The notes below the pieces were generated by a model, which was not told the DNA's origin, ran no database searches, and was given only the letters and a program-made list of their open reading frames with translations. A DNA stretch of 64,000 bases from an uncultured delta proteobacterium (lineage in GTDB: Bacteria; Desulfobacterota; Binatia; UBA9968): assembly GCA_963847445.1 (NCBI GenBank), contig CAWJZV010000023.1, positions 128,001 through 192,000 on the forward strand. The letters run 5' to 3'. Positions within the stretch are counted from its first letter, which is position 1. Every line of letters starts with the position of its first letter. Positions 12,027 through 36,342 of the stretch are shown here, piece after piece. The translations under genes and the position numbers were made by a program.

Positions 12027-12029
12027 CTC

Positions 12030-14476: not shown

Positions 14477-14547
14477 ATTCGCGGCGAGTCTCTTAATACC
14501 GGCAAATCTCTTTGCGCCGTCGCTGGAATTGCGTTAAATACGCAAGC

Positions 14548-17500
14548 ATGGCGGATGAGCCAAGCACAATTTGCCGCGCCTGTCAGCATACCAACGCGGC
14601 GGACGCGCAGTTTTGCGACGAATGCGGCGCGTCGTTCAATGCCAACTGCGGGCGATGCGGCGAAAGCAACCGCACTGGCGCGAAATTTTGCAAAAAGTGC
14701 GGCGCCCGGCTTGGTGATGCCGCAAGCGCGGCGGCGCCGAGTCCTGCGGCTTCATCCGTTCCAGCCGATAACGTTGCGGATCGCATGCTCGCGTCGCGCC
14801 GCTTCATGGAAGGCGAACGTAAAAGAGTGACGGTCTTGTTCGCCGACATCCGCGGTTCGACCAGTTTCATCGAGAAACTCGATCCGGAAGAGGTGCGCAA
14901 GCATTTCGATCCGGTGCTGCGGGTCATGATGGCCGCGGTGCATCGGTACGACGGCACGGTCAATCAAGTTTTGGGCGATGGCATCATGGCGCTGTTCGGC
15001 GCACCCCTGGCGCATGAAGATCACGCCCTGCGGGCCTGCTATGCGGCGCTGGCGATGCAAGCGGAATTGCGCCGTGGCGGCGGCACGGACGGCGCGTTAC
15101 CCCAGTCGTCGCGGTTGCAGATCGGCATCGGTATCAACTCTGGCGAAGTGGTCGTCCGCTCTCTGACCAACGATCTCAACATCGACTACTCGGCGCTCGG
15201 GCAAACTACCCATCTCGCCGCGCGCATGGAATCGCTGGCGGGGCCGGGATCGATCGCGATCACCGCCGACACCTTGCGCGAAGTAGAAGGCTTCGTTGAG
15301 GTGCGGCCGTTGGGTGCGCTCCAAGTCAAGGGCTTCTCCACTGCCATCGATGCCTTTGAACTGACCGGGGCGACCGCGGCGCGCAATCGCTTGCAAGCGG
15401 CGGAGGCGCGCGGACTGTCGCCCTTCGTCGGGCGCCGGACGGAGATTGCGTTTGCCCGGCAAATGTTGGCGCAAACTGCCGCCGGCCATGGCCGGATCTT
15501 GGCGGTGGTCGGCGAAGCCGGCATGGGCAAATCTCGTTTGCTGCGCCAGTTTCTCGATCATCACGTCTCCTCCGAGTGGCGCGTGGTCGCAGCGCCGTCG
15601 GTGTCCTATGGCAAGGCGACGCCCTATTTCCCGGTGATCGAATTGCTGCGGGGATTTTTTAACTTGCACGAAAGCGACGACGCCGATGCCGTGCGCTCGC
15701 GGGTCGCTGAAGAGGTGCTGACTCTTGACCCAAGTTTGAGCGACGCCGTGGCGCCGATACTGGCGCTGCTCGAGGCGCTGCCGGATGGGTCAACCGAACC
15801 GACCCATTCGCTGTCGCGGTGGCTCGAGGCGTTCCCCGCTGTCGCGGTCGCAACGGCGAATTACCGTGCCATGGATTTGCCGGGACGGCGCGCATCGACT
15901 CTGGCGGTTTTAGTGCGTTTGCTCTTGCGAGCGAGCAGCTTGAAACCGCTGCTTCTAGTCTTCGAAGACCTGCACTGGATCGACAGCGAGACCCAAGCGT
16001 TTCTCGACGCTTTGGTCGATAGTCTGCCGGTCGGGCGGGTCTGCTTGTTGGTCAACTACCGGCCGGGCTACAGCCACGCATGGGCCAATAAAGAGCACTA
16101 CAGCCGCTTGCGACTCAACCCATTGACGGCGGCCGGCGCTGAAGAGTTGCTCGACGCGCTGATGGGCGATCATGGCGATCTGGCGACGGTCAAACAGCTG
16201 CTGATTAGCCGGGCGGATGGCAATCCGTTCTTCGTCGAAGAAAGTGTGCGCTCGCTGACCGCTTCGGGAGTTCTGGTTGGCTCCAAGGGAAACTATCGGC
16301 CGGGGGTGCAAGTCGAGAACATTCGCATTCCCAACACCGTGCAGACAGTTCTCGCGGAGCGCGTCGATCGCTTGCCGGCGCTGGAGAAACAGCTGCTGCA
16401 AACCGCCTCGGTCATCGGCATGATCGTTCCCGAGCGGCTGCTCCAGGGCGTCACGGGATTGCCGGAAGCAGAACTGCGCGGCGCCCTGAGCCATTTACAA
16501 ACCGGTGAGTTTCTTTACGAAAGCAACTTGTATCCCAAGTTGGAATATAAGTTCACCCATGCGTTGATCAACGAAGTGGTCTACGGCGCGTTGTTGCACG
16601 AGCGCAAGACCGCCTTGCATGCGCAGACGGTGGCGGCGATCGAGCGGCTAAGCGGCGGCAATCCGCTCGACGAGATCGAAGCGCTCGCGGACCACGCGTT
16701 TCGCGGCGAGTTGTGGGAAAAAGCCGCCGACTATATGAGCCAAGCGGGCGGCAAGGCGATGAGCCATTCGGCTTTCGGCGAGGCGTTGGACAGCTATACC
16801 CGCGCCTTCGAAGCGCTCGGCCATCTGCCGGAAACCGCGGCGCGGCTTGAGCAGCGCATCGATCTGCACCTGGACTGTCGCAACGTGCTGTTCTTGCGCG
16901 GCGATTTGCCGCGGGTCGGCGACCATCTGGCGCAAGCCGAGGCGCTCGCCGAACGGATCGGCGACAGCCGGCGCTTGGCGCGGGTGCTCAATTTTCAAAA
17001 TAGTTATTACGGCTTGGTCGGCGATCCCGAGCGGGCCATCGAAGCCGGCCAGCGCGCCTTGGCGATGCCGGCGACGCAGCAGGATACCGCGCTGCGGGCG
17101 GTGACCAGTTACTACACCGGCGTGGCGTATAACAAGATCGCCCAGTATGAGCGCGCGGCGACGGTGCTGCGCAGCGGCATGCAAAGCGTCGAGGGGGCTT
17201 TGCGCCACCAACGTTTCGGCACCACGGTGATTCTTTCGGTGATCTTTCGCAGCCACTTGTTGCAATCCCTGGCGATGACCGGGGATTTTGCCGAAGGGCT
17301 GGCGCGCGGCGCCGAGGGCGTGCAGATCGCCGATGAGGCGAATCATCCGGTTAGCCAGATTCACGTCAATGCCAGTCTCGGCTTTCTGTATATTTTCAAG
17401 GGTGACTTTCACGAAGCGATACCGGTCTTGGAGCGGGCTATGACTCTGTGCGAGGAGAAACTTATCGCGATTTATGTGCCCTTGGTTGCGCCGCGGCTGG

Positions 17501-18001
17501 GTTACGCTTATGTCCGTGCCGGCCGTCAGGCCGAAGGGTTGCGGCTACTCGAGCAAAGCATCGAAGATTCCGCCGCGGTGGGCCGGGCTGGGTTCTTGGC
17601 GCTTAATCTCGCTTGGCTGAGCGACGCCTACTTGAGCGCCAATCGCGTCGACGAAGCGATGGTCTTGGCGGATCGCGCCTGTGAGTTATCCAGACAACAC
17701 AAGGAGCCGGGTCATGGCGCTTTGGCGCTCAAGCTGCGCGGCGATATCGCCATGCGCCTAACCGTTAGACAAATCGAGCAGGCCGAGGGGCACTATCGCG
17801 AAGCGTTGAGTCTCGCCAGTGATATGGCGATGCGGCCGCTCCAGGCCCATTGTCATGCGGCGCTTGCCCAAGTCTATGGGGTGGCGGGAAACCTTGAGCA
17901 GGCGCGCCAAGAGTCGAGCGCCGCGCGGGAATCTTTTCGCCGCTCTGGCGATGAATGGCTTCCTGACGATGGTCGAAGGTGATTCAACTCGGTTTAGTTA
18001 G
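14548..18001 (+). CDS. Double zinc ribbon + class III nucleotidyl cyclase + AAA ATPase + TPR protein, probable frameshift near 17935
   Basis: Four CxxC, VLFADIRGST, LGDGIMALFG, FVGR, GEAGMGKS, LVFEDLHW, DGNPFF, YKFTHAL, TPR-like helices. Confidence 0.9.
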
Positions 18002-18045
18002 CCGTCGCCGCCGGAAAGAAATCCCGCAAGATTTTTTTAGCGATC

Positions 18046-19975
18046 ATGACTCGACGGCTGGCCAAATCACAACGCAAACGATCGTCTGAGAATCATTCAC
18101 TCTCTATCGATGGGGCGGCGCAATCGCTCACCGGCCGGTTCGAACAGCAGGTGGCGCTCCATGGCGCGCGCCTCGCCCTGAAAACCCTAAATCAGGCGTT
18201 GACCTACGATCAACTGAATCGCGCGGCGAACCGATTGGGCCGTGCCATCTTCAATGAATCGCCGGCAGGCGACGAACCGATTGCGTTGCTCTTCAAACAC
18301 GGAAGCGCGCTGATCACGGCGAACCTGGCGGTGCTCAAGACCGGCCGGCCGTTTGTCCAGATCGATGACAAACTACCGCCAGCGCGGGCCGCCCGGCTGA
18401 TTGCAGACGCCGGGGCGCGCGCGATCGTCACCGACAGCGAGCACTATCGCTGCGCCCGTGAGCTTGCCGGCAGCGATGTTATCGTGGTCAATCTCGACGC
18501 GCTCAAGGACGATCTCGCCGATAGCAATCTCGGGTTAGCGATCGCGCCCAGCGCCATCGCCTATATCAACTACACTTCCGGCTCCACCGGCGAGCCCAAA
18601 GGTGTCATGTCGGACCATGGCAGCGAGTTGCATAGCATTCTGGTCAAGGCCAAAGCGTTGGCAATTACCCCGTCGGATCGCATCAGCCTGCTGCGCTCGC
18701 ACAACGTCGGCGCCACTTCCGATGCGCTGCTGGGATTGCTCAATGGCGCGGCTCTGTGTCTTTTGGAACTCAAGGAAGCGGGACTGGCCGGTTTGGCCGA
18801 CTGGCTGATCGGTGAGCAGGTCACGGTCTTCACTTGTGTCGCCAGTGTGTTTCGCCACGCCCTACGCAGCCTCGACCAGAACGTCACATTCCCTGGTGTT
18901 CGTTTGGTGCATCTCGGCGGCGAGGCGCTGTTTCAATCCGACATCGCGCTGTTCAAGCAACATTTCATCGACGGTTGCCGATTGGTCAACCGGCTTGGCA
19001 TCAGCGAGACCAAGACCGTCAGCTATTTTTTCATCGACAGGAATAGCATCGTCGAAGAACCGGTGGTGCCGGTTGGCTTTGCTCTAGACGGTTACGAAAT
19101 CGCCGTGCTCGACGAAGCGGGAAAGCCGGTGGCGCCAAACACGGTCGGTGCGATCGCGGTGAAGAGCCGCTTTCTCGCCAGCGGCTATTGGCGTCGTCCG
19201 GAGTTGACCCAAGCCAAGTTCTTAACCGATCCTGCCGGCAGCGACGCGCGCATTTTTCATTCCGGCGACCGAGGTTATTTGCGGCCGGATGGTTGTCTCG
19301 TTCATGTCGGCAGAAATGATTTACAAACCAAAGTTAGAGGCCACCGGGTCGAGCTTGCCGAAGTTGAGATCGCCTTGCTCGAGATCGCCGGCGTCGAACA
19401 AGCGGCGGTGGCGGCACGGCCAGCAGCGCGATGGCAGCGCGCGGTTATTGGCCTACGTCGTCTTGCGGGCCGGGAGCGCTCTGAACGTGAGTCAAATCCG
19501 CGGCGCGTTGCAAGAAAAATTACCCGATTACATGATTCCCGCCGCGTTTGTTCAATTGGCACGGCTGCCGATGACCAGCAGCGGCAAGATCGACCGGCGT
19601 GGGTTGCCGGAGGCGCGCCATTCGCGCGACGCCCTCGATGTTCCCTATGCCGCGCCGCAGAACCAACTGGAGACCGTCCTGGGGCGGTTTTGGTGCGAGG
19701 TCTTGCAGTTGGAGAAACTGGGCAGCGCTGACGATTTCTTCGCCCTTGGCGGCGACTCGTTACTGGCCAACGCAATTGTCGCACGGGTGAACCAACTGTT
19801 TGCCTTGACCCAGCCATTGAAAACGCTATTTGCCACGCCGACCGTGGCGCAGCTCGCGGCATGGATCACGGCGCAAGAACGTTTTCCAGGCGCAGCGGCG
19901 GAAAGCGCACGACTCATGCTCGAGATCGATGGCATGGCGCCCGAGCAGATTTACCGAGCGCTGGGCGACGATTAA
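18046..19975 (+). CDS. NRPS loading protein (A-T), frameshift near 19420
   Basis: LTYDQLN, YTSGSTGEPKG, SGDRG, GRND.Q.KVRG.RVEL.EVE, LPDYMIP, SGKIDR, T domain FFALGGDSL. Confidence 0.88.
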
Positions 19976-19979
19976 TCGA

Positions 19980-22900
19980 ATGAACATGCCTCGCCACTCG
20001 AAGCCCCACTCTGGCGCCGCGCTGGCCGCTGCCAAGCTGCGTTTACTGGCGCAGCTGCGGGATAAAAATACTGATTCAGGCGCCGGTGGCGCGAGCGCAA
20101 TCACGCCGCGTCCCCGCGGCGCAGCCGTGCCGCTGTCATTCGCTCAGGAGCGCTTGTGGTTTTTGCAGCAGTGGGAGCCGGCCAGTGCGGTTTACAACGT
20201 CGCCCGTGCTTGGCGTCTCAAGGGGGCGCTCGACGTTGCGCTGCTTGACCGTTGCGTGCAGCGTATCGTACAGCGCCATGAAGTTCTGCGCACGGTGTTG
20301 ACCAACGAGAGCGATGGGCCGATGCAGCGGCTCTTGCCGTTGACCGCGCCAGCGCTGCAAATGATAGATTTACGCCACATCGCGCGTCATCGCCGTGACG
20401 AGGAAATCCGCCTGCGGGTTGGCGCCGAAGCCGGCCATTGTTTCAATCTTGCCGCCGAAGCGCTACTGCGCGTTACCCTGCTCCGACTCGATCGCCAAGA
20501 GCATGTTTTCGTTTTTGTCGCGCACCAGGCGGTGTGCGATGGCCGCTCGCTCGATCTGTTTTACCGTGAACTCGAAGCGCTTTACGCCAACGGCGGCGCA
20601 GCCGAAGCCGCGGCCCTCGCCGAGTTGCCGCTGCAGTATGGCGATTATGCGCTTTGGCAGCGCCGGGCGTTCGACGATGCAGCCATGGCGGCGCCACTGG
20701 CCTATTGGAAAAAACAGTTGGGCGGCGTGTTGCCGGTTCTCGATCTGCCGGCGGATAAGCCGCGGGCGGCAGCCGGGAGCTTAAAAGGCGCGCGGCAGAA
20801 AATCATACTCGACCAAGCGCTCACCGCCGGGCTCAAAAAACTTAGCGCCAGGGCATCGAATACGCTGTTCGTCACCTTGATGGCGGCGTTTAACGTCCTG
20901 CTCTGGCGCTATACGCGGCAGGACGATCTCGTTGTTGGTTTCCCGGTGGCCAATCGCGGCCATCCGGCGCTGGAGAATCTCATCGGCTCGTTCGTCAATA
21001 CCCTGGCGCTGCGCAGCGATCTCGCCGGCGATCCGACATTTACCCAACTGCTGGCAAGGCTGCGCGCTAACTTGCAAGAGGCGCTGGCGCATCAGGAGTT
21101 GCCGTTCGAGCGGCTGGTCGATGAGTTGAAGCAAACGCGCGATGCCAACCGCACGGCGATTTTTCAGGCGCTGTTCACGTTTCAAAACCAGTTGCCCGCC
21201 GAGTTGAGCTTGCCTGGCATTCGCAGCGAGGCCATCGACTGCGACAGCGGCGGGGCCAAATACGATCTCAGCCTGGCGTTGGGCGAACGCGACGGCCGGC
21301 TCAGCGGCTTTTTTGAATATCGCAGATCACTATTCGCCGACGACACCATCGCACGCATGCTGCAACATTTCCTCACGCTGCTGAAAGCGATCGTCGCCGA
21401 CCCGGACCGGCCGATCGCGCGTCTGCCGATGATGAATCAACGGCAGCGCCGCCTTTTGCTGGTAGAGTGGAACCAGACGCGCGCGGTTCTACCCAAGGCT
21501 TGTGTGCATCAACTGTTCGAACGCCAAGCGCGGCGCACGCCGAGCGCGCTGGCGCTTGAGTGCGGCCCGGAGCGTTTGACCTACGGCCGACTGAATCGGC
21601 GCGCCAACCGCGTGGCGCGCTATTTAACAAAACTTGGCGTCGGGCGAAACTGCGTCGTCGCCGTATGCCTGGAGCGCTCGGTCGATATGGTCGTTGCCCT
21701 GCTCGCCGTGCTCAAAGCCGGCGCGGCCTATTTACCCCTCGACCCGGAATATCCGAGAGAACGGCTGGATTTTATTTTAGACGACGCCCAGGTGTCGGTG
21801 CTGATTAGCCAGAAGAGTATCGCCGACGATCGAGGATGGAGCATGGATGATAGCGATCCTCGATCCTCAATCCTCCATCCTCGACCCCATCTCATATTAT
21901 TAGATCGTGAGCGACGAAAGATTGAAACCCATAGCAGCGAGAATATTAGGAGCGGGTCTTCACCGCGCGATCTCGCCTACGTAATTTACACTTCGGGATC
22001 GACCGGCCATCCTAAAGGCGTCGAGATCGAACAGCGCTCGTGGGTCAATTGCCTGCTGTCAATGCAGCGCCATCTGAAGATCGCCAAAGCCGATGTCTGG
22101 CTGGCGGTGACGACCGTTTCTTTTGACATCGCCGCGGCGGAAATCTTTCTGCCGTTGATCACCGGCGGGAAATTAGTGGTCGCCAGCCCTGACGAGGCGC
22201 GCGATGGCGAGCGTTTGGCGCAACGATTGAAGAGTTCCGGCGCGACGACGATGCAGGCGACGCCGTCGACTTGGCGTCTGCTGCTCGAAGCCGGCTGGCA
22301 TGGCGATGGCGAGTTCAAGATACTCTGCGGCGGCGAGGCGTTGCCGCGCGCTTTGGCTGATCGCTTGTTGGCTTGCGGCCGGCTGTGGAATCTCTATGGC
22401 CCCACCGAAACAACCATCTGGTCGGCGCTGCATCGCGTCGAGGCTGTCGGCGATACCGTTCCCATCGGCCGGCCCCTGGCGAATACCCAGCTCTATATTC
22501 TTGACGGCGTTAGGCAGCCGGTGCCGATCGGCGTGGTTGGCGAGCTTTACATCGGCGGCGCCGGCGTGGCGCGCGGCTATTTGAATCGGCCGGACTTGAC
22601 CGCGGAACGCTTTATCGCGAATCCCTTTAGCCGTGAACCCGGTGCACGGATTTATCGCACTGGAGACCTGGCTCGGTATCAGATCGACGGCACCGTGGAG
22701 TTCCTTGGCCGCACCGACAACCAGGTGAAGCTGCGCGGTTACCGCATCGAATTGGCCGAGATTGAGAGCGTTCTCCGACTCCATCCAGCGGTGCGGGATG
22801 CGGCAGTCGTCGCCGGGGCCACCGGCGGCGAGGGCGAGAGTGAGTTGGTCGCCTACTTGGTGCCCCGAGACGGCGTGACGTTGGCGGAAAATCAATTGCG

Positions 22901-25900
22901 TGGCTACCTGAGCGGTAAGTTGCCCAACTGCATGGTGCCGGCTGTTTTCATCTCTTTACCAGCCTTGCCGCTGACGCCCAACGGCAAAGTCGACCGCCGG
23001 GCATTGCCTGCTCCGGATGGACCGCGAACCAGCGCGGCACGTGAGATTATCGAGCCGCGCGACGAGATCGAAGAGCTGGTGGCGCAGGTGTGGCGCGAGG
23101 TGTTGAAACTCGACCGGCTCGGCGTGCAGGAAAACTTTTTCCAGCTCGGCGGCCACTCGCTGCTCGCGACCCGCGTGGTGGCGCGCTTGCGTGGCCACTT
23201 TAACGTCGATCTGGCGCTGCGGAAAATCTTTGAACGGCCCACCGTCGCCGGGCTCGCCGAGGAAATTGCCATATTGCGCCGTAATCAGAGCGGGACCGGC
23301 GTGATGCCGATGATGCGAATCGCGCGTGGCGGCAAATTGCCGCTGTCATTTTCCCAGCGCCGTTTGTGGTTCTTGCAAAAACTTGACGGCGATCTCGCTG
23401 CTTACCATATACCGGCGCTATTTCGCATCGACGGCGCTGCTCGATGGTGCGGCGTTGGCGCAGGCGTTGAATCTGGTCACTGCGCGCCACGAGGCGCTGC
23501 GCACCGCCATTAGAGAAGTTGGCGGCGAACCCTGCCAGGAAATTGTCGCGCAGTTAACGATTGCGCTGCCGATCACCGATTTGTCCGGTTTGCCGAATGA
23601 CCAAGCTGGAATCGGAATGGCGTCGGCTGGCAAACCTGGTTCACCTTACGCCCTATGATTTGGCGCGGGCGCCGCTGTGGCGCGCCCAGTTAGTCAAGTT
23701 GGCCGAGCAGGAGCATCTGCTGATCTTGAATTTCCATCACATCATCGCCGATGGCGCTTCGCTGGCGATCTTTTATCGCGAACTTGCATCAAGCTATGAG
23801 GCCTATCGCCGCAAGGAGGTCGCGTCTTTCGCGCCATTGCCGTTGTCCTATGCCGACTACGCCGGTTGGCAGCAGCAGTGGCTAGCCTCACCGGCCTGTG
23901 CTGCCGAGCTGGATTACTGGAAGCGTAATCTCGCCGGTTTGTCGGCGCCGGCATCGATGCCGACGGATTTTCCCCGTCCGGCGGCGCGCAGCTACCGCGG
24001 CGCCAGATCGGTACGGCGCCTGCCTGTGGAACTCAGTGCGGCGCTGAACCGTTTCACCCGCCAACAGGGCGTGACCTCGTTCATGACTTTGCTTGCGGCG
24101 TTCAGCGTTTTGCTTGCGCGGATCGGCGGCCAGACGGATGTTGTTATTGGCTCCACCGTCGCTGGCCGCAACCATGCGGCGATGGAAGGGGTGATCGGTT
24201 TCTTTATCAACGTCCTGCCGCTTCGGCTTCAACTTGGCGACAATCCGACTTTCATTGGCTTGCTGCGCCGAGTTCGCGAAGTTTGCTTGGACGCGTACAG
24301 CAATCAGGAGTTGCCCTTCGAGAAATTGGTCGAAGAGATCAATCCGGCGCGCGCTCCCAGCCGCAATCCGCTGTTCGATATTCTCTTCAATGTCGCCGAC
24401 CTGTCGGAGCGCAAGTTTTCGCTGGCTGGCTGCAAGATCGACAAGATCATGGCAAGCGCCCCCAGCGCCAAATTCGACTTGGTGCTGTCGGCGCCGGAAA
24501 TCGCCGGCAGCGTGGAACTCACGGTGGATTACAATGTCGAACTTTACCGCCCGGAGCGGATCGCTGCCGTGCTCGAACAATTCGAACTGATCCTCGCGCA
24601 AGCGCTGCGCTGTCCTGAGCTGGCGATTGAGGAACTTTCACTAGTTGGCGAAACGGCGCGAGGGTTGCTGCCCGATCCGACGGCGCTACTCGATGACCGC
24701 TGGGAGGGGGCGATCCATGAACTGGTCGCCGCGCAAGCGCGCCATGCGCCGGCAAAAACTGCGCTAGTTCAGGGCGGTGAGAGTTGGAGCTACGCCGAGC
24801 TTGATCAGGCCGCCGGACGGTTTAGCGGCGCGCTCAGGGCCGGCGGCGTGAATGCCGAAGGACGTGGTGGCGATCTACGCTGCGCGCGATGCGTCGTTGG
24901 TCGTGGCCCTGTTGGGAATCCTGCAAACCGGCGCAAGCTTTTTGATTCTCGATCCGGCGTACCCGGCGGCACGCACAATAGATTACCTGAAAATCGCTCG
25001 GCCTAGGGCTTGGATCAAACTCGGCGGTCGCGGGCGAACTCGCGGTGGAATTGGCCGACTGTCTCAAAGCGTTGGACGTCTAAGTTTCACATGACTCTTG
25101 CGCGCGGCAAAGCCGCGATTGCCGCAGCGCTGACGCATAGCGAGAACGGCCGTATCTCAGTGCCGGTAGCGGCGCAGGATCCAGCCTATATCGCCTTTAC
25201 ATCCGGCTCCAGCGGAGAACCCAAAGCCGTTCTCTGCGGTCATGGGCCGATGACGCATTTTTTGCCCTGGCAGCGGGACGCTTTCGAGTTGCGCGGGAGC
25301 GATCGCTTCGCCATGCTCTCCGGCCTGGCCTACAGTCATCTGCATCGCGACCTGTTTACCGCGCTGGCGCTCGGCGCGACGCTTTACATTCCTGACGATC
25401 GCACCGCCCGGGCGCCGGACTTACTGGCAAACTGGTTGGACGATAATCGCATCACGGTTCTGCATCTCACGCCGGCGTTAGGACAGTTGCTTTTAGCCGG
25501 CGGCCAGTGCTCGTTGCCGGCGGTGCGCCGGATTTTTTTCGGCGGCGATGTCTTGACCAGCGAAGAGGTGCGGCGCATGCATCGCTTGGCGCCAAAGGCG
25601 GTGATCGGCAGTTTTTACGGCGCCACCGAGAGCCAGCGCGCCGTCGGCTATTACGAGATTGGCGGCGAGTTGCTCGACGCCGCTGACCATTCATCGCGGC
25701 CGGTGCCGTTGGGGCGCGGTATCAAGGATGTGCAGCTACTGGTTCTGAACAAGCGCCGGCAGCTTTGCGGCATCGGCGAGTTGGGCGAACTTTATGTGCG
25801 CAGCCCGCATTTGGCGTTGGGCTATGTCAACGACGACCAGCGCAGCGCGGAAATGTTTATCGTCAATCCATTCACCGGAAACGGACGTGACCGGCTCTAT

Positions 25901-26626
25901 CGTACCGGCGAACTCGGCCGCTATCGGCCCGACGGCAACGTCGACTGGGCCGGCCGTTCCGACCGGCGCGTCAACATCCGTGGCTTCCGCGTCGAGCTGG
26001 CGGAAGTCGAAACGGCGCTCAAACAACATTCGACGGTGCTCGACGCAGTGGTGATCGCAAGAGACTTCCCAACTCCTGAATCCGACAATCCAAAACCAAA
26101 AAGCGGCCCCGCGGACCAAAATCCAAAATTCGATAAGCGGTTAGTCGCTTACGTCGTCGCCAGCGAAGCAGGGGAAAGCGAGATCGAGGTTTTACGTTCC
26201 TATCTTGCCGCCAAGCTGCCGGACTACATGGTGCCGGGTTATTTCGTCCTTCTCGACCGGCTGCCCCTGGGGCCCAATGGCAAGCTCGACCACGATGCGT
26301 TGCCGCCTGTGATGCAATCCTGCGCCGAGTCGAGCACTGCGGCGCTCGCGCCGCGTTCTGAGGTCGAAGCCAAGTTGTGCGAGATATTTTCCGAGGTATT
26401 GGGCCGGGAGCGGATTGGCGTCGACGATAATTTCTTTCGCCTCGGCGGCCATTCTTTGCTCGCCGCGCAAGTCGCGCTGCGGATTAAAAATGGCTTCGGC
26501 GTCGGCCTCGAGTTGCGCGCCTTTCTGGCGGCGCCGACGGTGGCGGCGTTGGCGCGCTCGCTAGGCAATTTGACTGTTAACCCGGTGCCGGCTGGCGGCG
26601 GCGAGCGCGAGGAGATCGAGCTATAG
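19980..26626 (+). CDS. NRPS, C-A-T-C-A-T, frameshifts near 23435, 23600, 24850 and 25030-25070
   Basis: LSFAQERLWF, HQAVCDG, FDIAAAE, YGPTE, GGHSL; LSFSQRRLWF, HHIIADG, FTSGSSGEPK, YGATESQRAV, GGHSL; C-terminal EREEIEL docking motif. Confidence 0.9.
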
Positions 26627-29600
26627 ATACCGGGAACTTTATCGCGCAGTTGCGTGCGCTCGATATCGCGATATGCGCCGATGGCGATAAGTTGCGCATC
26701 AACGCGCCCAAGGGCGCGCTGACCGGTGAGCTGCGCGCAGCCATCGCCGCCGGTAAAGCCGAACTGCTGGCGATGCTTCGCGCCGGCGCTGCGATCGCGG
26801 CGCGCTCCATTGCGCCTCGCGGGATCGGCGAGGGCGCGCCTTTGTCTTTGGCCCAAGAGCGCCTGTGGTTCTTGGCGCAACTGGCGCCGGAAAGTTCCGT
26901 TTACAACTTATGTCGCGGGTTCCGCCTACGCGGTCCGCTCCATCGCCAGGCTCTCGCCGCGAGTCTCGACGAGATAGTCCGGCGTCATGAAGTGCTGCGT
27001 TCGAAGTTTTGCACGATCGATGGCAGACCGATGCAAGTTCCGGTTGCCGGCGCCGGGAGGTTGCTGCGGGTAACAGATCTGCGCCGGCTGTCCGGCATCC
27101 GACGTGAGAATGATCTGCGCCGGCGCATTATGCTGGAAGCGGAAACTCCATTCGATCTGGCGGTGGGGCGACTGCTGCGCGCGCGCTTACTGCAAGTCGA
27201 CGACGCCGAGCATGTTTTGCTTCTAACCACCCATCACCTTGTCGCCGATGCTTGGTCCATGGGCATTCTCGTCGGCGAACTTTGGCAGCTTTACCGCGCC
27301 TTCGTCGCCGGACAAGCGTCACCCTTGGCCGAATTGCCGATTCAATATGGCGACTTTGCCATTTGGCAGCGCCGCCGTATGGAGACGGCGCCGCTTCAGG
27401 AACAGCTTCGGTACTGGCGTAAACAGTTGGATGGCGTGGCAGCCCTCGATCTGCCCACCGACCGGTCCCGGCCGGTGCGGCAAAGTTTTCGCGGCCGACG
27501 CTACCCGTTGAATTTTTCACCATCGTTAACGGCGTCGCTCAATCGCTTGGCTGCGCAGGAGAACGCGACGCCGTTCATGGTGCTGTTGGCGTCGTTTCAG
27601 CTCCTGCTGCATCGTTACTCGGGCCAGGACGATATCGTTGTCGGTTCGGCGGTTAGCGATCGGCCGTGCGCCGAATGCGAGGGGCTGATAGGTTTTTTCG
27701 TCAACACTTTGATTCTGCGCGGTGATCTGAGCGGCCAGCCGAGCTTTCGCGACTATTTGCGGCGGCTGCGCGAAGTATGTCTCGATGCTTACGCGCACCA
27801 GGATATCCCGTTTGAGAAACTGGTCGAAGAATTCAAGCCGCGCCGGGAGTTCCATCGCCAGCCGTTGTTTCAAGCTTTCTTTGTTTTGCAGAACACGCCG
27901 AATCGTTGGGTGGTGCCGGATGGAATCGATGTCGAGCCACTGGAAGTGGAGAACGCCACGGCGCAGTACGATCTGTCGCTTTACCTGCGCGAGCGCGGCG
28001 GCCGGCTGCTCGGTTATTTCGAGTACGCCAGCGATCTGTTCGACGCCGCGACCATCGAGCGCCTGGCTGGACATTTTGAAATTCTCTTGACCGACATCGC
28101 CGCCAATCCTGCTCAAACCATCGCTTCCTTGGCCATGCTCAGTGAAAACGAGCGGCGGCGGATGTTAGTCGAATGGAACGACAGTGCGGCGGCTTATCCG
28201 AGCCAAAGCTGCATTCACGAGCTGTTCGAGGCCCAAGTCGCGCGCACGCCGGACGGCGTTGCCATAGAGTTCCAATCGTCAACGTTGACCTTCGCCGAAC
28301 TCAATCGGCGTGCCAACAGGGTGGCGCATTTTTTACGCGGTCGTGGCGTTGGCGCCGACGGGCGCGTCGGGCTTGCTGGTTGCGCGTTCGCTCGAGATGA
28401 TTGTTGGCCTGCTCGGGATTCTCAAGGCCGGCGCTGCTTATGTGCCGCTCGACCCCAGTTATCCGGCGGCACGTTTGGATTTCATGGTCGTCGACGCTGA
28501 GATCGAACTTTTGCTCACCCAGCGAAAGCTCGCCGGCACAATTTCCCCGGCAGATATTTCGCTGGTTTGTCTCGACGATGCCGATCTATTCGCCGGCCAG
28601 AGTCACGAGAATCCCACGGGACTGTCCAGCGCGGCAAGCGCCGCTTATGTCATCTACACTTCAGGTTCCACTGGGTTTCCTAAAGGCGTGGTCGGGCTTC
28701 ATCGCGGCGCGGTGAATCGTTGCGCCTGGATGTGGCGGCGTTATCCGTTTCGCCGCGGCGAAGTTTGTTGCAGCAAGACTTCGTTGAGCTTTCGTCGATT
28801 CGGTGTGGGAAATCTTTGGACCACTGCTGCAAGGTTTTCCTCTGGCGATCGCCGACGATGACACGGCCCATGATCCGCATGCGCTGATCGAGTTTCTTGC
28901 CCATCGGCGGGTGAGCCGGATTGTCTTGGTGCCATCGCTGCTAAAGGCCTTTCTTGATGATGGCGCCGACCTGGCGGTTAAGTTGCCGCGGCTAAAACTA
29001 TGGACCAGCAGCGGCGAGACGCTGACCGTCGAACTTGCACAACGGTTTCGCAAAAATCTTCCTGGGGCGCTTTTGCTCAATCTCTACGGTTCCTCGGAAG
29101 TCGCCGCCGACGCAAGCTATTTTGAATATGACGGTGGGGCTTCAGGGAAGACGGTGGCGATTGGCCGGCCGATCTCGAACAGCATGGTTTATCTTCTGGA
29201 TGCGCAGCGCCGGCCCGTGCCGGTCGGCGTCATCGGCGAACTGTATGTCGGCGGTGACGGCTTGGCGCGGGGCTATTGGCGCCGGCCGGAACTGACCGCG
29301 GAAAAATTCGTCGTCAATCCCTTCAGCGCCGATCCGGGCTCCCGGCTGTTTCGCACCGGCGACTTGGCGCGTTACCGCGCCGATGGCAATCTCGAGTATC
29401 TTGGCCGCGCCGATAACCAAATCAAAATCGCCGGCCAGCGCGTTGAACTGAGCGAGATCGAAGCTGCGCTGCGCAGGCATCCAAGGATCGACGACTGCGT
29501 TGTGAACTTGGCGGACCATGACAACGGCGCGATCGGAAATGCGCCATTGGCGAATTCCTTGGTGGCGTACCTTGTATCACCAACGCCGCCGACCGACCGC

Positions 29601-31406
29601 GAGCTGCGCGAGTATCTCCAGCAAAAGCTGCCGGCTTGCATGCTACCGGCTGGGTTTGTTCGCTTGGAGCGCCTACCGCTTCTGCCCAACGGCAAATTGG
29701 ATCGATGCGCGCTGCCGGAGCTCGCAGGCGCGCCAGTGAAGGCTGAATCGAAGCTGGTGGGGCCGCGCAGCAAAACCGAAGAGAAAGTTGCCGCGATCTG
29801 GCGCGAGGCGCTGGGTTTAGACTGGATTGGCGTCGACGATGACTTCTTCGAACTCGGTGGCCATTCGATATTGGCGATGCAAATGGTCGCGCGGTTGCGC
29901 GCGGCATTCGGCGCCGAGTTCTCCGTGCGCGAGTTTTTCGCTGCGCCGACGGTCGCCGGCGTCGCTGCTCGGATAAAAAAAGGCGCGCGCGCGGCGCTAC
30001 CGCCAATCCTGCCCCCGATCCTGCCATTGCCTAATGCCGGTGCGTTACCGGTGTCATCGGCGCAGGATCTTTTCTGGCGCATGGACAACTTGTTGTCGGG
30101 AGCGGATTTTTTGAATCTCCCCTACGGCTACCGGCTCAGCGGGCGATTGAACCAGGCGGCGCTGGAGCGCGCCGTCGAGGCGATCACGGCGCGCCATGGA
30201 GTGTTGCGCACGGTCTTCAGAGCGCGCCGCGGCCAGCTTGTTCAAGTCGTCCGGCGCCAACTGCGGCTGCCGCTCAAACGATTCGATTTGGCCTCCAAGC
30301 CAGAACCCATGCGCCACGCCGAGCTTGAGCGACTCTCCCACGCCGACGCGACGGCAATCTTCGACCTGGAAAAGGGGCCACCGTTCCGGGTGACGTTAAT
30401 TCGATTGGCCGCGGCCGAACATGTCTTGCTCGTGACGATGCATCATATTATCGCCGATCAATGGTCGATGCGGTTGTTTCGCAGCGAGCTTGTGATGTTT
30501 TACAGAGCCTTTGCTCAAGGTAAGTCCGCGACGGTGGCGGCGTTGCCGTATCAATTTGCCGATTTTAGCCAATGGCAACGGCGACTGTTGGACACCGGCG
30601 GATTTGACGATCAACTCAACTTTTGGCAGAAGCAGTTGGCCGGTCCGTTGCCAAGGATCGATTTTTCGTCGGTCTGCAAACCGCGAAAAAAATTGACGCT
30701 GCGGTCCGGACGGCTGTCGATGGATATAAGCGCGGCGGTGAGCGCGGCAATTCACAAATTGGCGCGCCGGCAGAGAACCACACCGTTTGTGGTCCTGGTT
30801 GCGGCGTTAAACTTTTGGCTCCACCGCTTGACCGGCTGCCGCGATCTTCGCATCGGAACGTTGGTGGCAAATCGCCACCAGCCTCATACGGAGAGTCTGA
30901 TCGGCTACTTCGTCAATGCGGTGGTGTTGCGAACCCGGGTGGCGCCGCGGATGTCGTTCGTCGATCTTTTGCAACAGACCCGATCCGTGGCGCAGGAAGC
31001 CTTTGCCCATCAGGATCTGCCCATCGCGGAGCTGAGCCGTATCCTGCAGAGAGCAGGCGCTGAGCAAACAAACCTATACCCGGTTATGGTGAATTACCGG
31101 CGCTTGATCGATGAGCCTGAGGATGTCGCTGGTTTGACATTTGCTCACTGGTCCAAGGGTGGGGATCGGGCGGCGGCCCCGGAGGTGGCACTTACCTCGG
31201 CAGAGCTGAGTTTCGAGTTTCGCGAGCTGGCAACAAAGTTGACCGTGAGTGTCAACTATCGTTGCAGTTTGTTCGATGACCGTTACGCCCGGCAGTTGCT
31301 CGATGGATTCATGGCGGTGCTCGGTGCCGCCGTGGAGCGGCCTGAAGGCGATATAGCGAATTTTCAGATCGTGTCTGACGGCTTACAATCGAGGAGGTTG
31401 CAATGA
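26623..31406 (+). CDS. NRPS, TubC-type docking domain-C-A-T-C, no thioesterase, frameshifts near 28360 and 28795
   Basis: LRALDI..ADGDKLRINAPKGALT, HHLVADAWS, SFVDSVWE, YGSSEVAAD, GGHSIL, terminal C domain HHIIADQWS. Confidence 0.9.
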
Positions 31407-33202
31407 GGCAATGGATTGCCTTGAGTGTGATCGCGGTTTTACTTGTCACCGGTTCAACCTACGCCGGCGAGAGCGGCGAGAGTTACCATTGGACACCGGC
31501 GGAGATGAGTACCCGGCCCGCCAGCCGCAGCGGCCAACTGATGCGCAAAATCGCCGCTGTCCGGCTCTTGCCCGACGACATGGCGATGCCCAAGGACATC
31601 GATTGTCACGACGAACCTTGTAGGTTCGACTTGTATTATTTTTTCGGCAAGGGCTTTAACCTCGCCCGTCCCGAGCGCAAGAATATTTTATTCATTGCCG
31701 GCGGGCCCGGCCAACTCGTCGACAACGTTAACCAGATGGGTCGCATGCTCGGCCATCTAGAGGCTCGTCATAATGTGGTTTATTTCGACCTGCGCGGCGG
31801 TGGCCGCAGCGTGATCCCTGCGAGCAACAAGTTCGATCGTTTCCTGCGCGCTGAATACGTCGCCGACGACATCGAAAAAATCCGCAAAGCGGTGCTCAAC
31901 CACAGGCCCTGGGATGCGATCTACTCGCATAGTTGGGGCGCGCTGCCGGCGCAATTGTACGCGGCTCGATTCGGCTCCAATAAAGTGAAAACGCTGATCC
32001 TGTCCGCGCCGGTGGTGCGAGATCGCGACACCCACGGCGCCCGCGCACGCATGACCGCGGCAAACTTGAAATTGATCTTGACGACTTACCGTTCGCCGCC
32101 AGGGCAGCCTTGTGACTGCCGCGATCGAAAGCTCCCGTTACCGGTGCAAACGTTTTTGGGCACAGCCACGGAAAAGCTCGGCGAGGTGAGCGCCCTAGTG
32201 GACGCTCGCGCCAGCTATAATTTTTGTTTTATCGATGTCGAGCAAGCCCATTGGCTCGGCGATAGTTTGGAAAAGCTCCTGAGTGAGATCGAGGCGCGGT
32301 TCGGCTCGGTGGATTTCGTCACCGATCATTATGACCAGTTGCTCAAGTCGGGCGATGCCGGATCGCGTCCGCGCTTCCCGCGGGAATTTTATTCGGCGAT
32401 TAAAACGCTGCAGTTTACCGGCGCGCCGGAATCCGGCGTCAAGCCTTACGCCGGTGACTTCGCTAGGCAAATCGATGCGGCGTTGGTGATTGGCCATTAT
32501 CTAACTCTCGCGCTGGAAAGCGCTTCCGGCAGCGCAACAATAACGCGCCAGTGCGCGGCCAGTTCGCCATTCTTAAAAAACGCCCAATGCGCCACTGGAT
32601 ACTGCAAGATCATCGCGCCGGCAAAGCTCGCCGGCCAGCGCGACGGACCACTGGAGTCGATTCGCGCCAACCGGGTGCTGGGTCTGTATGATGGAGTCGC
32701 CCGTGCTTTAGTGCGGCCGGGCATGATCGAACGCGACAGTGGCGCTTGCTTCACCGGCCAAGATGTCACGGCGTTTGCCGCCGGCAGCGAGGGCAAAGAA
32801 CTGCTGCGCGGCGAAGCCAAGAAACTCGGTGCCATTGCAGCGGAAAAGATTTGCCCTTGGACGCCGAAGAATCATCCCCATGAGGTCCGTACGCTGATTC
32901 TCAAGGGCGCCCGGGACACCGTGATCGCCGGCTGCCAAGCCGAGGATTTTTATCGCGATGGTCTCAAAGGCGAGCGCGCGCTGCTCGAGTTTCGCGGTAC
33001 GGGCCATGCGATGTATGCCGCTTCATTCAATTTTATCGGTGACCGCACGGTTTACGCGGAGTCGTTGCGGGTGGTCTTGGAAAGGTTCATGGATCTGCCC
33101 GTGGCGCGGCTGCGGACCGACAAGCTGGTGACGGGGAACATCGATAAACTGCAGGCGATATTTCGCGAACCCGATGCCGGACGGGCGGATTGTCCGGTTT
33201 GA
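31403..33202 (+). CDS. Secreted alpha/beta-hydrolase, S33/TAP-like peptidase
   Basis: Signal peptide MRQWIALSVIAVLLVTGSTYA, GGPG, DLRGGGRS, SHSWG nucleophile, GARD, GTGH; ATGA overlap with the NRPS stop. Confidence 0.75.
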   Translation: MRQWIALSVIAVLLVTGSTYAGESGESYHWTPAEMSTRPASRSGQLMRKIAAVRLLPDDMAMPKDIDCHDEPCRFDLYYFFGKGFNLARPERKNILFIAGGPGQLVDNVNQMGRMLGHLEARHNVVYFDLRGGGRSVIPASNKFDRFLRAEYVADDIEKIRKAVLNHRPWDAIYSHSWGALPAQLYAARFGSNKVKTLILSAPVVRDRDTHGARARMTAANLKLILTTYRSPPGQPCDCRDRKLPLPVQTFLGTATEKLGEVSALVDARASYNFCFIDVEQAHWLGDSLEKLLSEIEARFGSVDFVTDHYDQLLKSGDAGSRPRFPREFYSAIKTLQFTGAPESGVKPYAGDFARQIDAALVIGHYLTLALESASGSATITRQCAASSPFLKNAQCATGYCKIIAPAKLAGQRDGPLESIRANRVLGLYDGVARALVRPGMIERDSGACFTGQDVTAFAAGSEGKELLRGEAKKLGAIAAEKICPWTPKNHPHEVRTLILKGARDTVIAGCQAEDFYRDGLKGERALLEFRGTGHAMYAASFNFIGDRTVYAESLRVVLERFMDLPVARLRTDKLVTGNIDKLQAIFREPDAGRADCPV

Positions 33203-33290
33203 AAGATTCAGCGCCGAAAAAAAATAATTTCCTTGGCGGCTAATCTGAAGTATTGTGCACGAGTAACGTCAACGGGAAAAGAGGTGCAAT

Positions 33291-33530
33291 GTGGGTAAAG
33301 GGGTAAAATTATCGGCAGCGGCGGCGGCGAAATTGCGCAAAGCCAATCGCAAATTGATTAGCTCCAACAAAGATTTGCATGCCGCGGTCCAAGCTCTGGT
33401 GAAAGCGTCGAAGGCTAAATCTGCGGCTGCGAAGACTGCGGCGGCGCGCAAAGCCTACTCAACTGTAGTCAAGCGAAATCCGCTGCTGCGGGCGGCGGTG
33501 AAGGAAAATCTCAAGAAGCTTGCCGGCTAA
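33291..33530 (+). CDS. Small Lys/Ala-rich basic protein
   Basis: 79 aa, RBS AAGAGGTG before GTG, followed by a hairpin; 15 K, 5 R, 21 A, 2 acidic residues. Confidence 0.65.
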   Translation: MGKGVKLSAAAAAKLRKANRKLISSNKDLHAAVQALVKASKAKSAAAKTAAARKAYSTVVKRNPLLRAAVKENLKKLAG

Positions 33531-33648: not shown

Positions 33649-35197
33649 CTAGTCGATTTTTAGCCGCCGCAGTTTCTTTATCAGTCCCTGGCGGCTTACC
33701 CCGAGTTTCTGCGCGGCTTTGGCTTTGTTGCCATCGCAGCCATCGAGGGTTTGTTGAATCATCTTCCGTTCCAATGCATCGATAGCTTGGCTTAGCGTTT
33801 GCCAAGGCGACGGTTCGGCCGCCGCTCCGGCAGTCGCGTGGCTGCCACGGCTCTCCAGCACCAGATGCTCGGCATCGATGGCAGCGCTGCGCACCGATGC
33901 GACTAAGCGTTTAACTTCGTTTTCCAGTTGGCGCGTGTTCCCTGGCCAACCGTACGCCATCAAACTGGCGATGGCCGCGGACGTGAAGTGTTTGAGTTCC
34001 ACCTGGTTGGCGCTGCAATGTTTTTGCAAGAAATGATTGGCCAGGATGGGAATGTCCTCGGGGCTTTCGCGCAGGGACGGCGTCTGAATGCGCACGACGC
34101 TGAGCCGGTAGTAGAGGTCCTCGCGAAAGAGTTTTTCTCTCATGGCGGTCTCTAGATCGCGATTGGTGGCGGCGACGATCCTCACGTCCACCGGCACCGG
34201 CGCTCGGCTGCCGATGCGATCGATGGAACGTTCTTGCACCACCCGGAGAATTTTCGCCTGCGCGGACAGGCTCAAATCGCCAATTTCATCGAGGAACAGT
34301 GTGCCGCCATGGGCCGCTTCGAATTTTCCGATGCGCCGATCGACGCCGGTGGCGACGCCTTTTTCGATGCCAAAAAGTTCGGTCTCCACCAGGTTGTCCG
34401 GCAGTGCCGCGCAGTTGAGAGCGACGAAGGGATACTTGGCGCGCGGGCTGTTGAAGTGCAGCGCTTTGGCGATCAGTTCCTTGCCGGTGCCGCTTTCGCC
34501 TTGAATCAAGACGTCCACCGAACTTGGACGAATCTGGTCGATCAAGCGGATGATCGACCCTATGCGATGGCTCATGCCGACGATCTTCTGGGTGGCAAAG
34601 CCGCTGATGAACTCGGCGGCGGGGTAGCTCCGCGGTTCCTGCTTATGAGTCTTGAGCTCGCTGGCAATCGGCGAGTTCTCGATCACATCGGCAAGCTGGG
34701 CCGCCAAGCGTCGTCAGGATCTCGGCGTCGGCGTCGGTAAACACGCCGCCAATTTTATTGGTCGCTTCGCCGACACCGATGACGGCGCCATCGAGACTGT
34801 GAAGCGGCACGGCCAGCAGGTTGCGGGTGCGATAGCCGGTTTCAATATCGACTTCTTTGTAAAACAATGGATGCTCGTAGGCGTTTGCCGTGTTGATGGC
34901 TTGTCCGGTCATCGCCACCGCGCCGGCGATACCAAGGCGGGCGTCGAAGCGCATGATCTTGCCCTCTTCGGAGATCGCCGACCACAACTCACAGTTGTCG
35001 CGGTCGAAAAGAAACACGCTGACGCGATCGGCCTGCAACAGCTCCTTGGCTTCGCGAGTAATCAAGCTCTGCAACGAGGCCAGGTCGGTGATTGTACTCA
35101 TGCGCCGGCAAATATTGAGCACGACGCGCAACTTATCGACATGTTCGGGCGTGCCGCCCGCCACCGGAGCAAGTTTTTCGCTGTAACTAGAAGTCAT
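33649..35197 (-). CDS. GAF-domain sigma54 enhancer-binding protein with Fis HTH, frameshift near 34710
   Basis: GAF (ADRVSVFLFD, TGYRTRNLLAVP), GESGTGKE, ELFGIEKGVATG, FLDEIG, FREDLYYRL, WPGN.RQL, NKAKAAQKLGVSR. Confidence 0.9.
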
Positions 35198-35531
35198 CCA
35201 TTCCTGCCTAACATAGTTGGCAAAAATCTGCTACTGCTAGGCCCAGTGAACCCGAAAGTGTTAAACTGGCACCGAGACAATGGATTTGTCAGCAATAATT
35301 CGCCCAATTGTTAGGTATGGTGAAGCCAGATAGCGGATTGACCCCTTGCCTCGGCGGGGAGCGAGCCGCTATTGGCTGAATGTGCTTCGGTTCCGACGTG
35401 TCGCTTAGCCTGGCTAACGTCAGAGCAGAAGCGTTGCGGCACTGTGGCCCGATTCATCGATGCATTCCAATTGCTTCGCTCCGATGCCAGTATGTTGCAT
35501 GGGAAAACAAGTGTTTCTCGTAATTATCCGC

Positions 35532-35547
35532 TGGCACTAAGGTTGCT
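35532..35547 (+). promoter_or_regulatory. Sigma54 -24/-12 promoter
   Basis: TGGCAC-TAAGG-TTGCT, GG-N10-GC spacing, 45 nt upstream of ATG 35593 and divergent from a bEBP gene. Confidence 0.75.
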
Positions 35548-35592
35548 CGTCTGAATTGTTAGACAATAGTCCGTTAGCTCATGGAGGTCTCG

Positions 35593-36342
35593 ATGAATCG
35601 GGAAACCTTTCGCGAACAGCTTCTCGGTGTGATGGAACGTAAGGATCATTGGGCCTGGCCGGCTTTTACTTCAGGCCAAGTGCCCAGGGACCGGCTGCAT
35701 TTTCATTTCGAGCAAGAGTATGGCACCTACGTGCGCGACTTTCCGATACTCGTCGGGCGATCGTATATTCGTTGTCCGATCGCCGAGATTCGCCGCAGTT
35801 TGGCGGAGAATCTCTACGAAGAAGAAACCGGCGGCCTGGTCGCCGGCCGGCCTCACCCCGAACTTTTTCTCGAATATCCCCGCGGCCTCGGTATGGACCT
35901 GAGCCGATTTCAAAATATCCAGTTGTTGCCGGCGGCGCAGCGTTACCGTGATTTTCTCGACGCCGCGACTGAATCCTTCGGTTGGGATATCGCGTCGGCA
36001 ATCGTGACCATCTTTGTCGAAGGATCGAGCGCTGAAAGAGCCGCGCTCGATACCCGGAAAAATCACCCGCCACCGCCTCTGGAGGAACATCCGCTGGTGA
36101 AATATTACGGACTCTCGGTGGAGCATTTAGCGCTGACCAAAGCCCATCGGCAGGTGGAAGGACTCCACCGAGCCGCCGCTTGGGACGCGATCTTGGATCA
36201 TGTCGTGCCGCTACGCCGCGGCGCCGTGGTGCGGGTGATGGAGGATGCGCTCAGAATTTGGCAACTCTACCGTGACGAAGTTGCTTTAGTTTGCGGCATT
36301 CAGGAGGGCGGCATGTCATGCGCCAGCGCGGTTGCTGGCTGA
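35593..36342 (+). CDS. Heme-oxygenase-like diiron enzyme (PqqC/CADD/TenA superfamily)
   Basis: ENLYEEE..G....HPELF, IFVEG and AHRQVEGLH ligand pattern; RBS GGAGG. Confidence 0.75.
   Translation: MNRETFREQLLGVMERKDHWAWPAFTSGQVPRDRLHFHFEQEYGTYVRDFPILVGRSYIRCPIAEIRRSLAENLYEEETGGLVAGRPHPELFLEYPRGLGMDLSRFQNIQLLPAAQRYRDFLDAATESFGWDIASAIVTIFVEGSSAERAALDTRKNHPPPPLEEHPLVKYYGLSVEHLALTKAHRQVEGLHRAAAWDAILDHVVPLRRGAVVRVMEDALRIWQLYRDEVALVCGIQEGGMSCASAVAG

Follow-up and report, generated by a model that had tools for sequence, protein, structure and literature searches.

A modular nonribosomal peptide synthetase cluster ending in a condensation domain in an uncultured Binatia bacterium

We analyzed a 64-kb window (the whole stretch of DNA considered here) of contig CAWJZV010000023.1, from an uncultured Binatia soil bacterium, and focused on a cluster on its forward strand (18046-33530) that encodes a nonribosomal peptide synthetase (NRPS), an alpha/beta hydrolase, and a small basic protein. 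Domains were called with Pfam on long open reading frames (ORFs) plus neighboring-frame pieces, with the NCBIfam models as a second library. The NRPS genes span 18046-31406 and encode adenylation (A), carrier (T), and condensation (C) domains in the order A-T / C-A-T-C-A-T / TubC dock-C-A-T-C, with E-values for the large domains ranging from 1e-52 to 1e-108. The genes for the 599-residue hydrolase and then the 79-residue protein follow. We consider it probable that this is a functional, uncharacterized Binatia NRPS operon, seen through eight consensus errors, and that its capped four-unit chain with Gly and beta-amino units is released by the terminal C domain.

Gene 1 (18046-19975, +) encodes a loading module made up of A1 (~18139-19191; AMP-binding, E = 1.6e-52, with AMP-binding_C and PP-binding in the next frame) and T1 (~19688-19867; PP-binding). 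Gene 2 (19980-26626, +), assigned by Pfam together with frame reading, encodes two elongation modules: C2 (20127-21461; Condensation, E = 7.1e-108), A2 (21516-22988; AMP-binding, E = 2.3e-88), and T2 (23076-23264; PP-binding), followed by C3 (~23334-24658; Condensation, E = 1.6e-82), A3 (~24728-26284; AMP-binding), and T3 (26372-26557; PP-binding). Gene 3 (26650-31406, +) begins with a TubC_N docking domain (26653-26781, residues 2-44; E = 4.3e-12), which at 46.4 bits clears the PF18563 gathering score of 26, and continues with C4 (26836-28164; Condensation, E = 7e-107), A4 (~28225-29696; AMP-binding), T4 (29781-29975; PP-binding), and the terminal C5 (30039-31382; Condensation, E = 2.4e-78). 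All four carrier domains retain the phosphopantetheine serine (GGDSL in T1, then GGHSL, GGHSL, and GGHSI), and both the TSGS(T/S)G motif and the GK motif, equivalent to Lys517, are present in every A domain. The genes are tightly spaced: the gene 2 ATG lies 4 nt after the gene 1 stop, gene 3 starts with TTG 23 nt after the gene 2 stop, and the hydrolase start codon, an ATG at 31403, shares bases with the stop of gene 3 at 31406 (ATGA). Gene 2 ends in a short acidic tail (...EREEIEL) that may pair with the gene 3 docking domain. Pfam and the start/stop overlaps thus reproduced the domain order and gene coupling given in the original prediction.

To look for missing functions, we scanned 57 ORFs and 209 stop-to-stop segments (at least 60 amino acids, GC content at third codon positions at least 0.60) from the window and found no match to a thioesterase, reductase (NAD_binding_4), MbtH protein, or phosphopantetheinyl transferase (PPTase). 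Pfam likewise found no epimerization domain in the window, and no A or T domain beyond those of the cluster in the 64 kb. These absences had been claimed before and hold up, with one correction: the window was also said to contain no exporter, but a frameshifted MFS exporter-type gene lies at ~56742-57824 (-), ~23 kb from the cluster. No sigma-54 promoter was found upstream of gene 1, and Rfam and tRNA scans of the window returned nothing. In overall type, the locus belongs with the known modular NRPSs; several of its details are unusual, and we call it an orphan without a comparison to MIBiG.

In the assembly as it stands, the NRPS genes are interrupted. Three-frame reading combined with Pfam profile coordinates indicated that they open only after eight single-base +1 frame changes, with extra bases near 19420 in gene 1; near 23439, 23607, 24857, 25028, and 25081-25084 in gene 2; and at 28373 and 28789 in gene 3. 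Once these eight shifts are applied, all domains are complete and all core motifs are present. An in-frame TAG at 25004-25006 falls outside the true frame, and the correct frames there read as an ordinary A-domain N-terminus.

We compared the cluster with relatives from a scan of one genome per species, which yielded 517 stretches encoding related proteins; the best 80 were kept, corresponding to 79 loci. One of these, L001, is a locus from a Binatia-type metagenome-assembled genome (MAG) that is collinear with positions 8561-33572 of the window in two blocks of 91.2% and 91.8% identity (91.2% over 20,163 aligned columns). Apart from L001, the loci among the best 80 of the 517 stretches are at most 48% identical to the query protein. 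Proteins 96-97% identical to the hydrolase and to the terminal C domain are assigned by their sources to Candidatus Binatia.

L001 lacks the extra base at all eight of the window's sites. Its own frame-changing events number at least 24 in the NRPS genes and four in the hydrolase gene, none of them in common with the window. One candidate for a common frameshift, near 23600, was rejected, as the window's extra base is at 23607 and that of L001 lies opposite 23596, 11 nt away. A cluster of insertions and deletions at 30019-30037, in the Pro/Leu-rich linker between T4 and C5, amounts to a net 8 bases and can be assigned to neither side. Comparing codons in the window's corrected frames, with extra bases in L001 ignored, we found no nonsense substitution in either sequence across 4413 aligned NRPS codons. 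A TAA at 25081 depends on where gaps are placed in the alignment of the two sequences, and a stop in L001 six codons ahead of the window's gene 3 stop is probably the natural end of the L001 gene. The ratio of nonsynonymous to synonymous substitution rates (dN/dS) between the two loci was 0.27, 0.28, and 0.26 for genes 1 to 3, and 0.28 for the hydrolase gene, whereas the small gene gave 0.10 and the candidate regulator gene upstream of the cluster 0.17; two wrong-frame controls gave 1.48 and 1.58.

Proteins from other assemblies read through two of the break sites. An uninterrupted 889-residue protein from another Binatota MAG (P0164) aligns over 27436-30095 in three successive frames, changing frame at ~28372 and ~28790 and so crossing the sites at 28373 and 28789 unbroken, and three further proteins (P0083, P0091, and P0089) run through the 28789 site without a break. 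In addition, the window holds at least six non-NRPS genes with breaks of this kind, in which Pfam profile coordinates continue across adjacent frames: an amidohydrolase (~12500), a GAF/sigma-54 activator (~34680), a xanthine-dehydrogenase-like gene (50296-51098), a histidine phosphatase (51690-52347), the MFS transporter gene noted above, and a second amidohydrolase (58382-59480, at 58.7 kb). These split genes point to an error-prone assembly.

Ten substrate-pocket positions per A domain were taken from motif anchors and then checked by aligning all four domains, using A2 as the anchor of the alignment because HMMER had aligned it to solved structures. The four pocket codes that we obtained agree with the original pocket readings, and the pockets of L001 are identical where readable, except for position 331 of A1 (Ala for Val). 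The A1 pocket reads VGSTHGRTVK, with Val in place of Asp235. Asp235 is described as binding the alpha-amino group (PMC8788816, PMC11355689), and A domains for 2-oxo acids are described as carrying a hydrophobic residue in its place and as forming a separate clade with a ketoreductase (PMC13643306). Thus, we propose that A1 would load a starter other than a standard alpha-amino acid. A 2-oxo acid would be one option only, because the ketoreductase of that clade is absent in the case of A1.

The A2 pocket reads DIAQLGLIWK. For the pocket region, the best structural matches are 4zxh_A (6.7e-43) and 5u89_A (6.1e-39), whose codes, read off the alignments, are DILQLGVVW and DILQLGLIW. Among A domains of other loci, those closest to A2 have DILQLG(L/M/V)(I/V)W, and PMC12283262 reports DILQLGMIWK as a Gly-activating code. 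Given the agreement among structures, relatives, and this published code, A2 is a predicted Gly-type domain with Ala239, in line with the earlier Gly-like call. Compared with Gly-activating domains, it agrees at 9 of 10 pocket positions with 5u89_A and at 7 of 10 with 4zxh_A, and differs by the Ala at position 239, where Gly codes have Leu. Ala239 enlarges the pocket, so a substrate slightly larger than Gly is possible.

A3 is the only one of the four A domains that scores higher on the NCBIfam model for Lys2, TIGR03443 (the top NCBIfam match of A3), than on the generic A-domain model (378.7 vs 277.3 bits), bearing out the claim that it is Lys2-like. Its pocket, SHRHFGFRA-K, has Ser rather than Asp at position 235. 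The A domains most similar to A3 come from loci of Acidobacteriota and actinomycetes (41-47% identity) and have pockets read as DPR(H/N)xGxRA-type (L053 9781-10854; L002 12011-13126; L050 9275-10546; L038; L072). A3 has Arg239, His278, Arg330, and Ala331 as they do, but Ser-His at positions 235-236. Pockets with Arg239 and His278 activate the distal carboxyl group of acidic amino acids, and on this ground our guess is that the A3 substrate may be an amino-dicarboxylic acid activated at its distal carboxyl.

In A4 (VDWVTSLADK), position 235 is Val and the Asp has moved to 236, a placement that fits the match to 1amu_A, which begins at query residue 3 and chain residue 236. The A4 code is fully readable in seven orthologues that share 43-83% identity with the window in their T-C parts: four have VDWVTSLADK, two have VDWVSSLADK, and one has VDWVFSLGDK. 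A shift to Val235/Asp236 marks A domains for beta-amino acids, for which we found no reference code in print; A4 probably takes a beta-amino acid, with beta-alanine the likely one. A pocket of the same type, VDWVVSLAD, occurs in an internal NRPS module of Pyxidicoccus caerfyrddinensis (L013, 8792-9688). This myxobacterium has been cultured, and its module could take the place of A4 in experiments on what this pocket type accepts.

The catalytic motifs of the C domains are HQAVCDG in C2, HHIIADG in C3, HHLVADA in C4, and HHIIADQ in C5. In C2, Gln replaces the second His of HHxxxDG, and the same is true of L001. In structure-database searches, all four C domains looked like those usual in elongation modules, with Txo1 (2.2e-58) and Txo2 (2.5e-51) as the best matches for C5. 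When 26 terminal T-C sequences were aligned (25 of 120 listed hits plus the query), the two His residues and the Asp of C5 proved invariant and the Gln of HHxxxDQ is nearly so, which argues that C5 is conserved as a catalyst. C5 is the last domain, follows T4, and keeps its catalytic His, as terminal-C release calls for; the thioesterase or reductase that would end a conventional modular NRPS is missing from the window. Because a release domain is missing and the terminal C domain is conserved, we suggest, by analogy with known systems, that C5 releases the four-unit chain onto a free nucleophile, most likely a cellular amine. PMC10587159 describes addition of putrescine by a C domain as a demonstrated mode of chain release for the glidonins, and as a proposed one for the malleobactins and bicornutin A.

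The hydrolase gene (31403-33202, +) encodes an alpha/beta hydrolase of 599 residues that is related to the S33 family (Pfam Abhydrolase_1, 4e-13; Hydrolase_4, 6e-9). After MRQ, its N-terminus is hydrophobic (mean Kyte-Doolittle value of 2.63 over residues 4-16), and we read it by eye as a signal peptide; together, the Pfam match, the ATGA overlap, and this N-terminus uphold the earlier description of an overlapping secreted hydrolase. The family comprises 36 clusters, mostly of 593-600 residues. Across the query and 32 of the 36 hits (four short fragments were omitted), Ser177 within HSWG, Asp505, and His535 do not vary, and the conservation of 12 Cys is in keeping with export. Against solved structures, the alignment profile matched the proline iminopeptidases 5yhp, 1azw, and 1qtr (1e-12 to 1e-9) over residues 87-201 only, with the GGPG, RGxGxS, and SWG motifs aligned, and matched Hip1-like proteases more weakly. 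The scores against TIGR01249 and TIGR01250 lie well below the family cut-offs (31.8 bits vs 259.75 and 44.9 vs 167.65), and look-alikes in the ESM Atlas fall only in generic alpha/beta hydrolase, S33, or Abhydrolase_4 clusters. As an exported enzyme cannot touch carrier-bound intermediates, the hydrolase would act on the product after export, in trimming, activation, or recycling.

The last gene (33291-33530, +), identified as an ORF with homologues, begins 88 nt after the hydrolase gene with a GTG start preceded directly by a purine-rich stretch. As claimed, its 79-residue product is Lys-rich and basic: it contains 15 Lys, 5 Arg, and 21 Ala, has no Trp, and has an isoelectric point of 11.6. 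The protein is 96% identical in L001 and has 39 homologous clusters of 79-81 residues, with a mean column identity of 80% across the query and 21 of the 39 hits. It matched no Pfam family (E up to 0.001), no NCBIfam family, and not the MbtH profile, and the ESM Atlas gave no usable match. A profile search of 1.84 billion representatives found 19 members, 18 of which are 59-85 residues long; the other, of 868 residues, carries cNMP-binding domains. Pfam searches of 14 of the 19 gave no family above the gathering score in the region related to the 79-residue protein. A promoter-like site (10 of 12 positions) lies upstream of the gene at 33199-33228. A GC-rich hairpin after the gene was considered as an intrinsic terminator and rejected, as it is no better than in shuffled sequences (z = 0.56) and is not listed by a terminator scan.

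We then asked how far the accessory genes travel with the NRPS. Among the 79 loci from the best 80 of 517 stretches, either accessory gene is present in L001 only. In five other Binatia assemblies, the NCBI accessions of the hydrolase and a C-domain protein follow one another on a single contig. In another Binatia assembly, a 551-residue condensation-domain protein (P0247), not marked as partial, lies beside the hydrolase on an 8183-bp contig. In that assembly, either gene 3 is broken up as well or the gene was called with a late start. In distant relatives, members of the families occur on longest contigs of the same size: the hydrolase and the 79-residue protein at 14125, 26056, and 3842 bp, the hydrolase and the terminal C domain at 26973 and 3986 bp, and the 79-residue protein and the terminal C domain at 15102 bp. 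These matching sizes are indirect evidence for one conserved cassette in the distant relatives.

From these observations, we propose the following scheme. A1-T1 would load a starter other than a standard alpha-amino acid, possibly a 2-oxo or other carboxylic acid, and C2-A2-T2 would join glycine to it. C3-A3-T3 would add a unit picked by the Lys2-like, Arg/His-rich pocket, perhaps an amino-dicarboxylic acid linked through its distal carboxyl. Gene 2 would dock to gene 3 through the TubC-type domain, and C4-A4-T4 would add a beta-amino acid, probably beta-alanine. In place of a thioesterase step, C5 would then condense the four-unit chain with a free nucleophile, for which a cellular amine is the likeliest candidate, and the exported S33-like hydrolase may act on the product outside the cytoplasm. 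The domain order, motifs, pocket residues, conservation, purifying selection, and linkage of the accessory genes are observed; the Gly class aside, the substrate identities are inferred, and so are the acceptor and what the hydrolase and the 79-residue protein do.

Several observations weigh against this scheme, and they bear on three other explanations of the locus. The frame breaks are denser in the cluster than elsewhere, with eight in the 13.4 kb of the NRPS and at least six in the other 50.6 kb of the window, a roughly fivefold difference, though detection outside the NRPS is less sensitive. L001 has the same bias, with at least 28 breaks across its NRPS and hydrolase genes (9900-25080) and one in the 9.4 kb upstream. 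The L001 breaks in the cluster are almost all single extra bases, and lower read depth, strain mixture, or mis-mapping among repeated modules could cause the enrichment. The first condensation may also be unusual or impaired, given the Gln that replaces the second His of C2 and is kept in L001. A decaying pseudogene cluster, with eight real frameshifts and no product in this organism, would account for both observations, but we regard it as improbable. No break is common to two genomes that are 91% identical, all eight of the window's breaks are +1 insertions, the core motifs are intact, nonsense substitutions are absent, dN/dS is low, orthologues in other assemblies are unbroken, and unrelated genes in the window are split too. 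On these sequence comparisons, we conclude that the breaks are more likely consensus errors of the assembly than signs of a dead locus. Thus, of the outcome that the original prediction had named as fatal to it, namely frameshifts showing the locus to be dead, the frameshifts are real features of this assembly and the dead locus is not borne out. Given the enrichment in both assemblies, the locus could, as judged from sequence alone, conceivably have been inactivated very recently.

The release step is open to a different explanation, in which C5 acts as a normal elongation C domain, partnered in trans by a further A-T or A-T-TE protein encoded elsewhere, giving a longer product with conventional release (TE, thioesterase). 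C5 does resemble elongation-module C domains and keeps HHxxxD, and a release domain was not found in the window. We nevertheless think this unlikely, as the next gene after C5 is the coupled hydrolase, an order that recurs by consecutive accessions in five assemblies and is inferred in distant relatives from equal contig sizes. Moreover, A and T domains other than those of the cluster are absent from the 64 kb, the HHxxxDQ variant specific to this family hardly varies, and PMC10587159 provides a precedent for terminal-C release. The lack of a PPTase and a thioesterase in the window and of an exporter near the cluster also tells against the pathway as we have drawn it, and so does a point on the substrate assignments: a literature search for beta-alanine and Lys2-type pocket codes returned only one related Gly code (PMC12283262), and the main text of the kasichelin paper gives no specificity code. 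As for the accessory genes, the hydrolase, the 79-residue protein, or both might be unrelated neighbors without a role in the pathway. An exported hydrolase has no access to carrier-bound intermediates, the 79-residue gene belongs to no known family and may be a separate unit because it has its own promoter-like site, L001 alone among the 79 related loci has either gene, and the linkage in distant relatives rests on equal contig sizes rather than on the DNA itself. We still judge this rather unlikely, since the start codon of the hydrolase gene overlaps the stop of gene 3, the two families have similarly low numbers of members (36 and 39 clusters), contig sizes are shared between the two families and with homologues of the terminal C domain down to 44-57% identity, and the adjacency holds by accession in five assemblies. 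Finally, C5 could transfer the chain to a lysine side chain of the 79-residue protein, a nonribosomal peptidylation of a dedicated protein, in which case the exported S33-like hydrolase would be part of the same Binatia-specific cassette. We mention this because the 79-residue protein has a narrow distribution like that of the hydrolase, is conserved above the enzymes, and has no amine-forming gene nearby to supply another acceptor, but we rate it as very improbable.

The chain made by the cluster may be a short, polar oligoamide that contains iso-peptide and beta-amino linkages. The Binatia are a widespread, uncultured group, the cassette recurs in several of their assemblies, and a search of literature listings returned no report of a characterized natural product from this group. 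The cassette also joins features that are hard for prediction tools: the usual Asp235 is missing from three of the four pockets, one elongation module contains an A domain of the Lys2-like type, the first C domain lacks the second His, and release is predicted to occur through a terminal C domain. The cluster would be a reasonable target for synthesis and heterologous expression. More generally, frame breaks in long-read MAGs should not be taken as gene death without a comparison of the kind made here.

Directly upstream of the cluster, a 1156-residue protein (14512-17982, +) combines a zinc ribbon, an adenylate/guanylate cyclase domain (Guanylate_cyc, 3.4e-19), AAA_16 (1.2e-25), and TPR repeats (TPR_MalT), and its gene ends 63 nt before gene 1. 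It scores 291.8 bits against TIGR03903, below the cut-off of 705.75, and is a possible regulator. Downstream, the only perfect TGGCAC-N5-TTGC match in the window (35532-35546, +) lies 35 nt upstream of a Haem_oxygenas_2-like gene (35581-36342, +). The GAF / sigma-54 AAA / HTH activator gene that adjoins this site (33652-35230, -), split near 34680, probably serves the Haem_oxygenas_2-like gene and not the NRPS, because the only perfect sigma-54 site in the window stands before that gene. Farther out, at 1597-14476, 38623-39804, and 58382-59480, we noted repeated bicupin and Amidohydro_2 paralogues, one DHDPS-family gene, and a CbbQ/VWA pair. These surroundings look like a catabolic neighborhood, which is possibly linked to the supply of unusual NRPS substrates. 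Transposase-like ORFs occur near the far end of the window, one an IS200-like Y1_Tnp fragment (59496-60119) and the other a DDE_Tnp_1 match (60865-61590).

Several parts of the cluster can be placed beside known systems. A3 and T3 favor the model for Lys2, the L-aminoadipate-semialdehyde dehydrogenase (TIGR03443), and the A3 pocket has Arg239, His278, and Arg330. At 378.7 bits against a cut-off of 1030.1, and with no reductase domain, A3 falls outside that family, and it differs further in its place inside an elongation module after a C domain and in the Ser at 235. The hydrolase resembles the S33 prolyl aminopeptidases and the TAP/Hip1-like exported serine hydrolases in its motifs, its candidate Ser-Asp-His triad, and its putative signal peptide, and differs in its length of ~600 residues and in a large Cys-rich insertion of no known family. 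Gene 3 begins with a docking domain of the TubC type (PF18563), and the candidate partner at the end of gene 2 is a short acidic tail. For chain release, the closest comparison is with the glidonins as described in PMC10587159: both systems lack a working thioesterase step and have a C domain with its catalytic His after the last carrier, which would be expected to join the chain to a free amine. Glidonin module 13 is C-A*-T-TE, whereas the assembly line described here ends in the C domain itself and has no amine-forming gene nearby.

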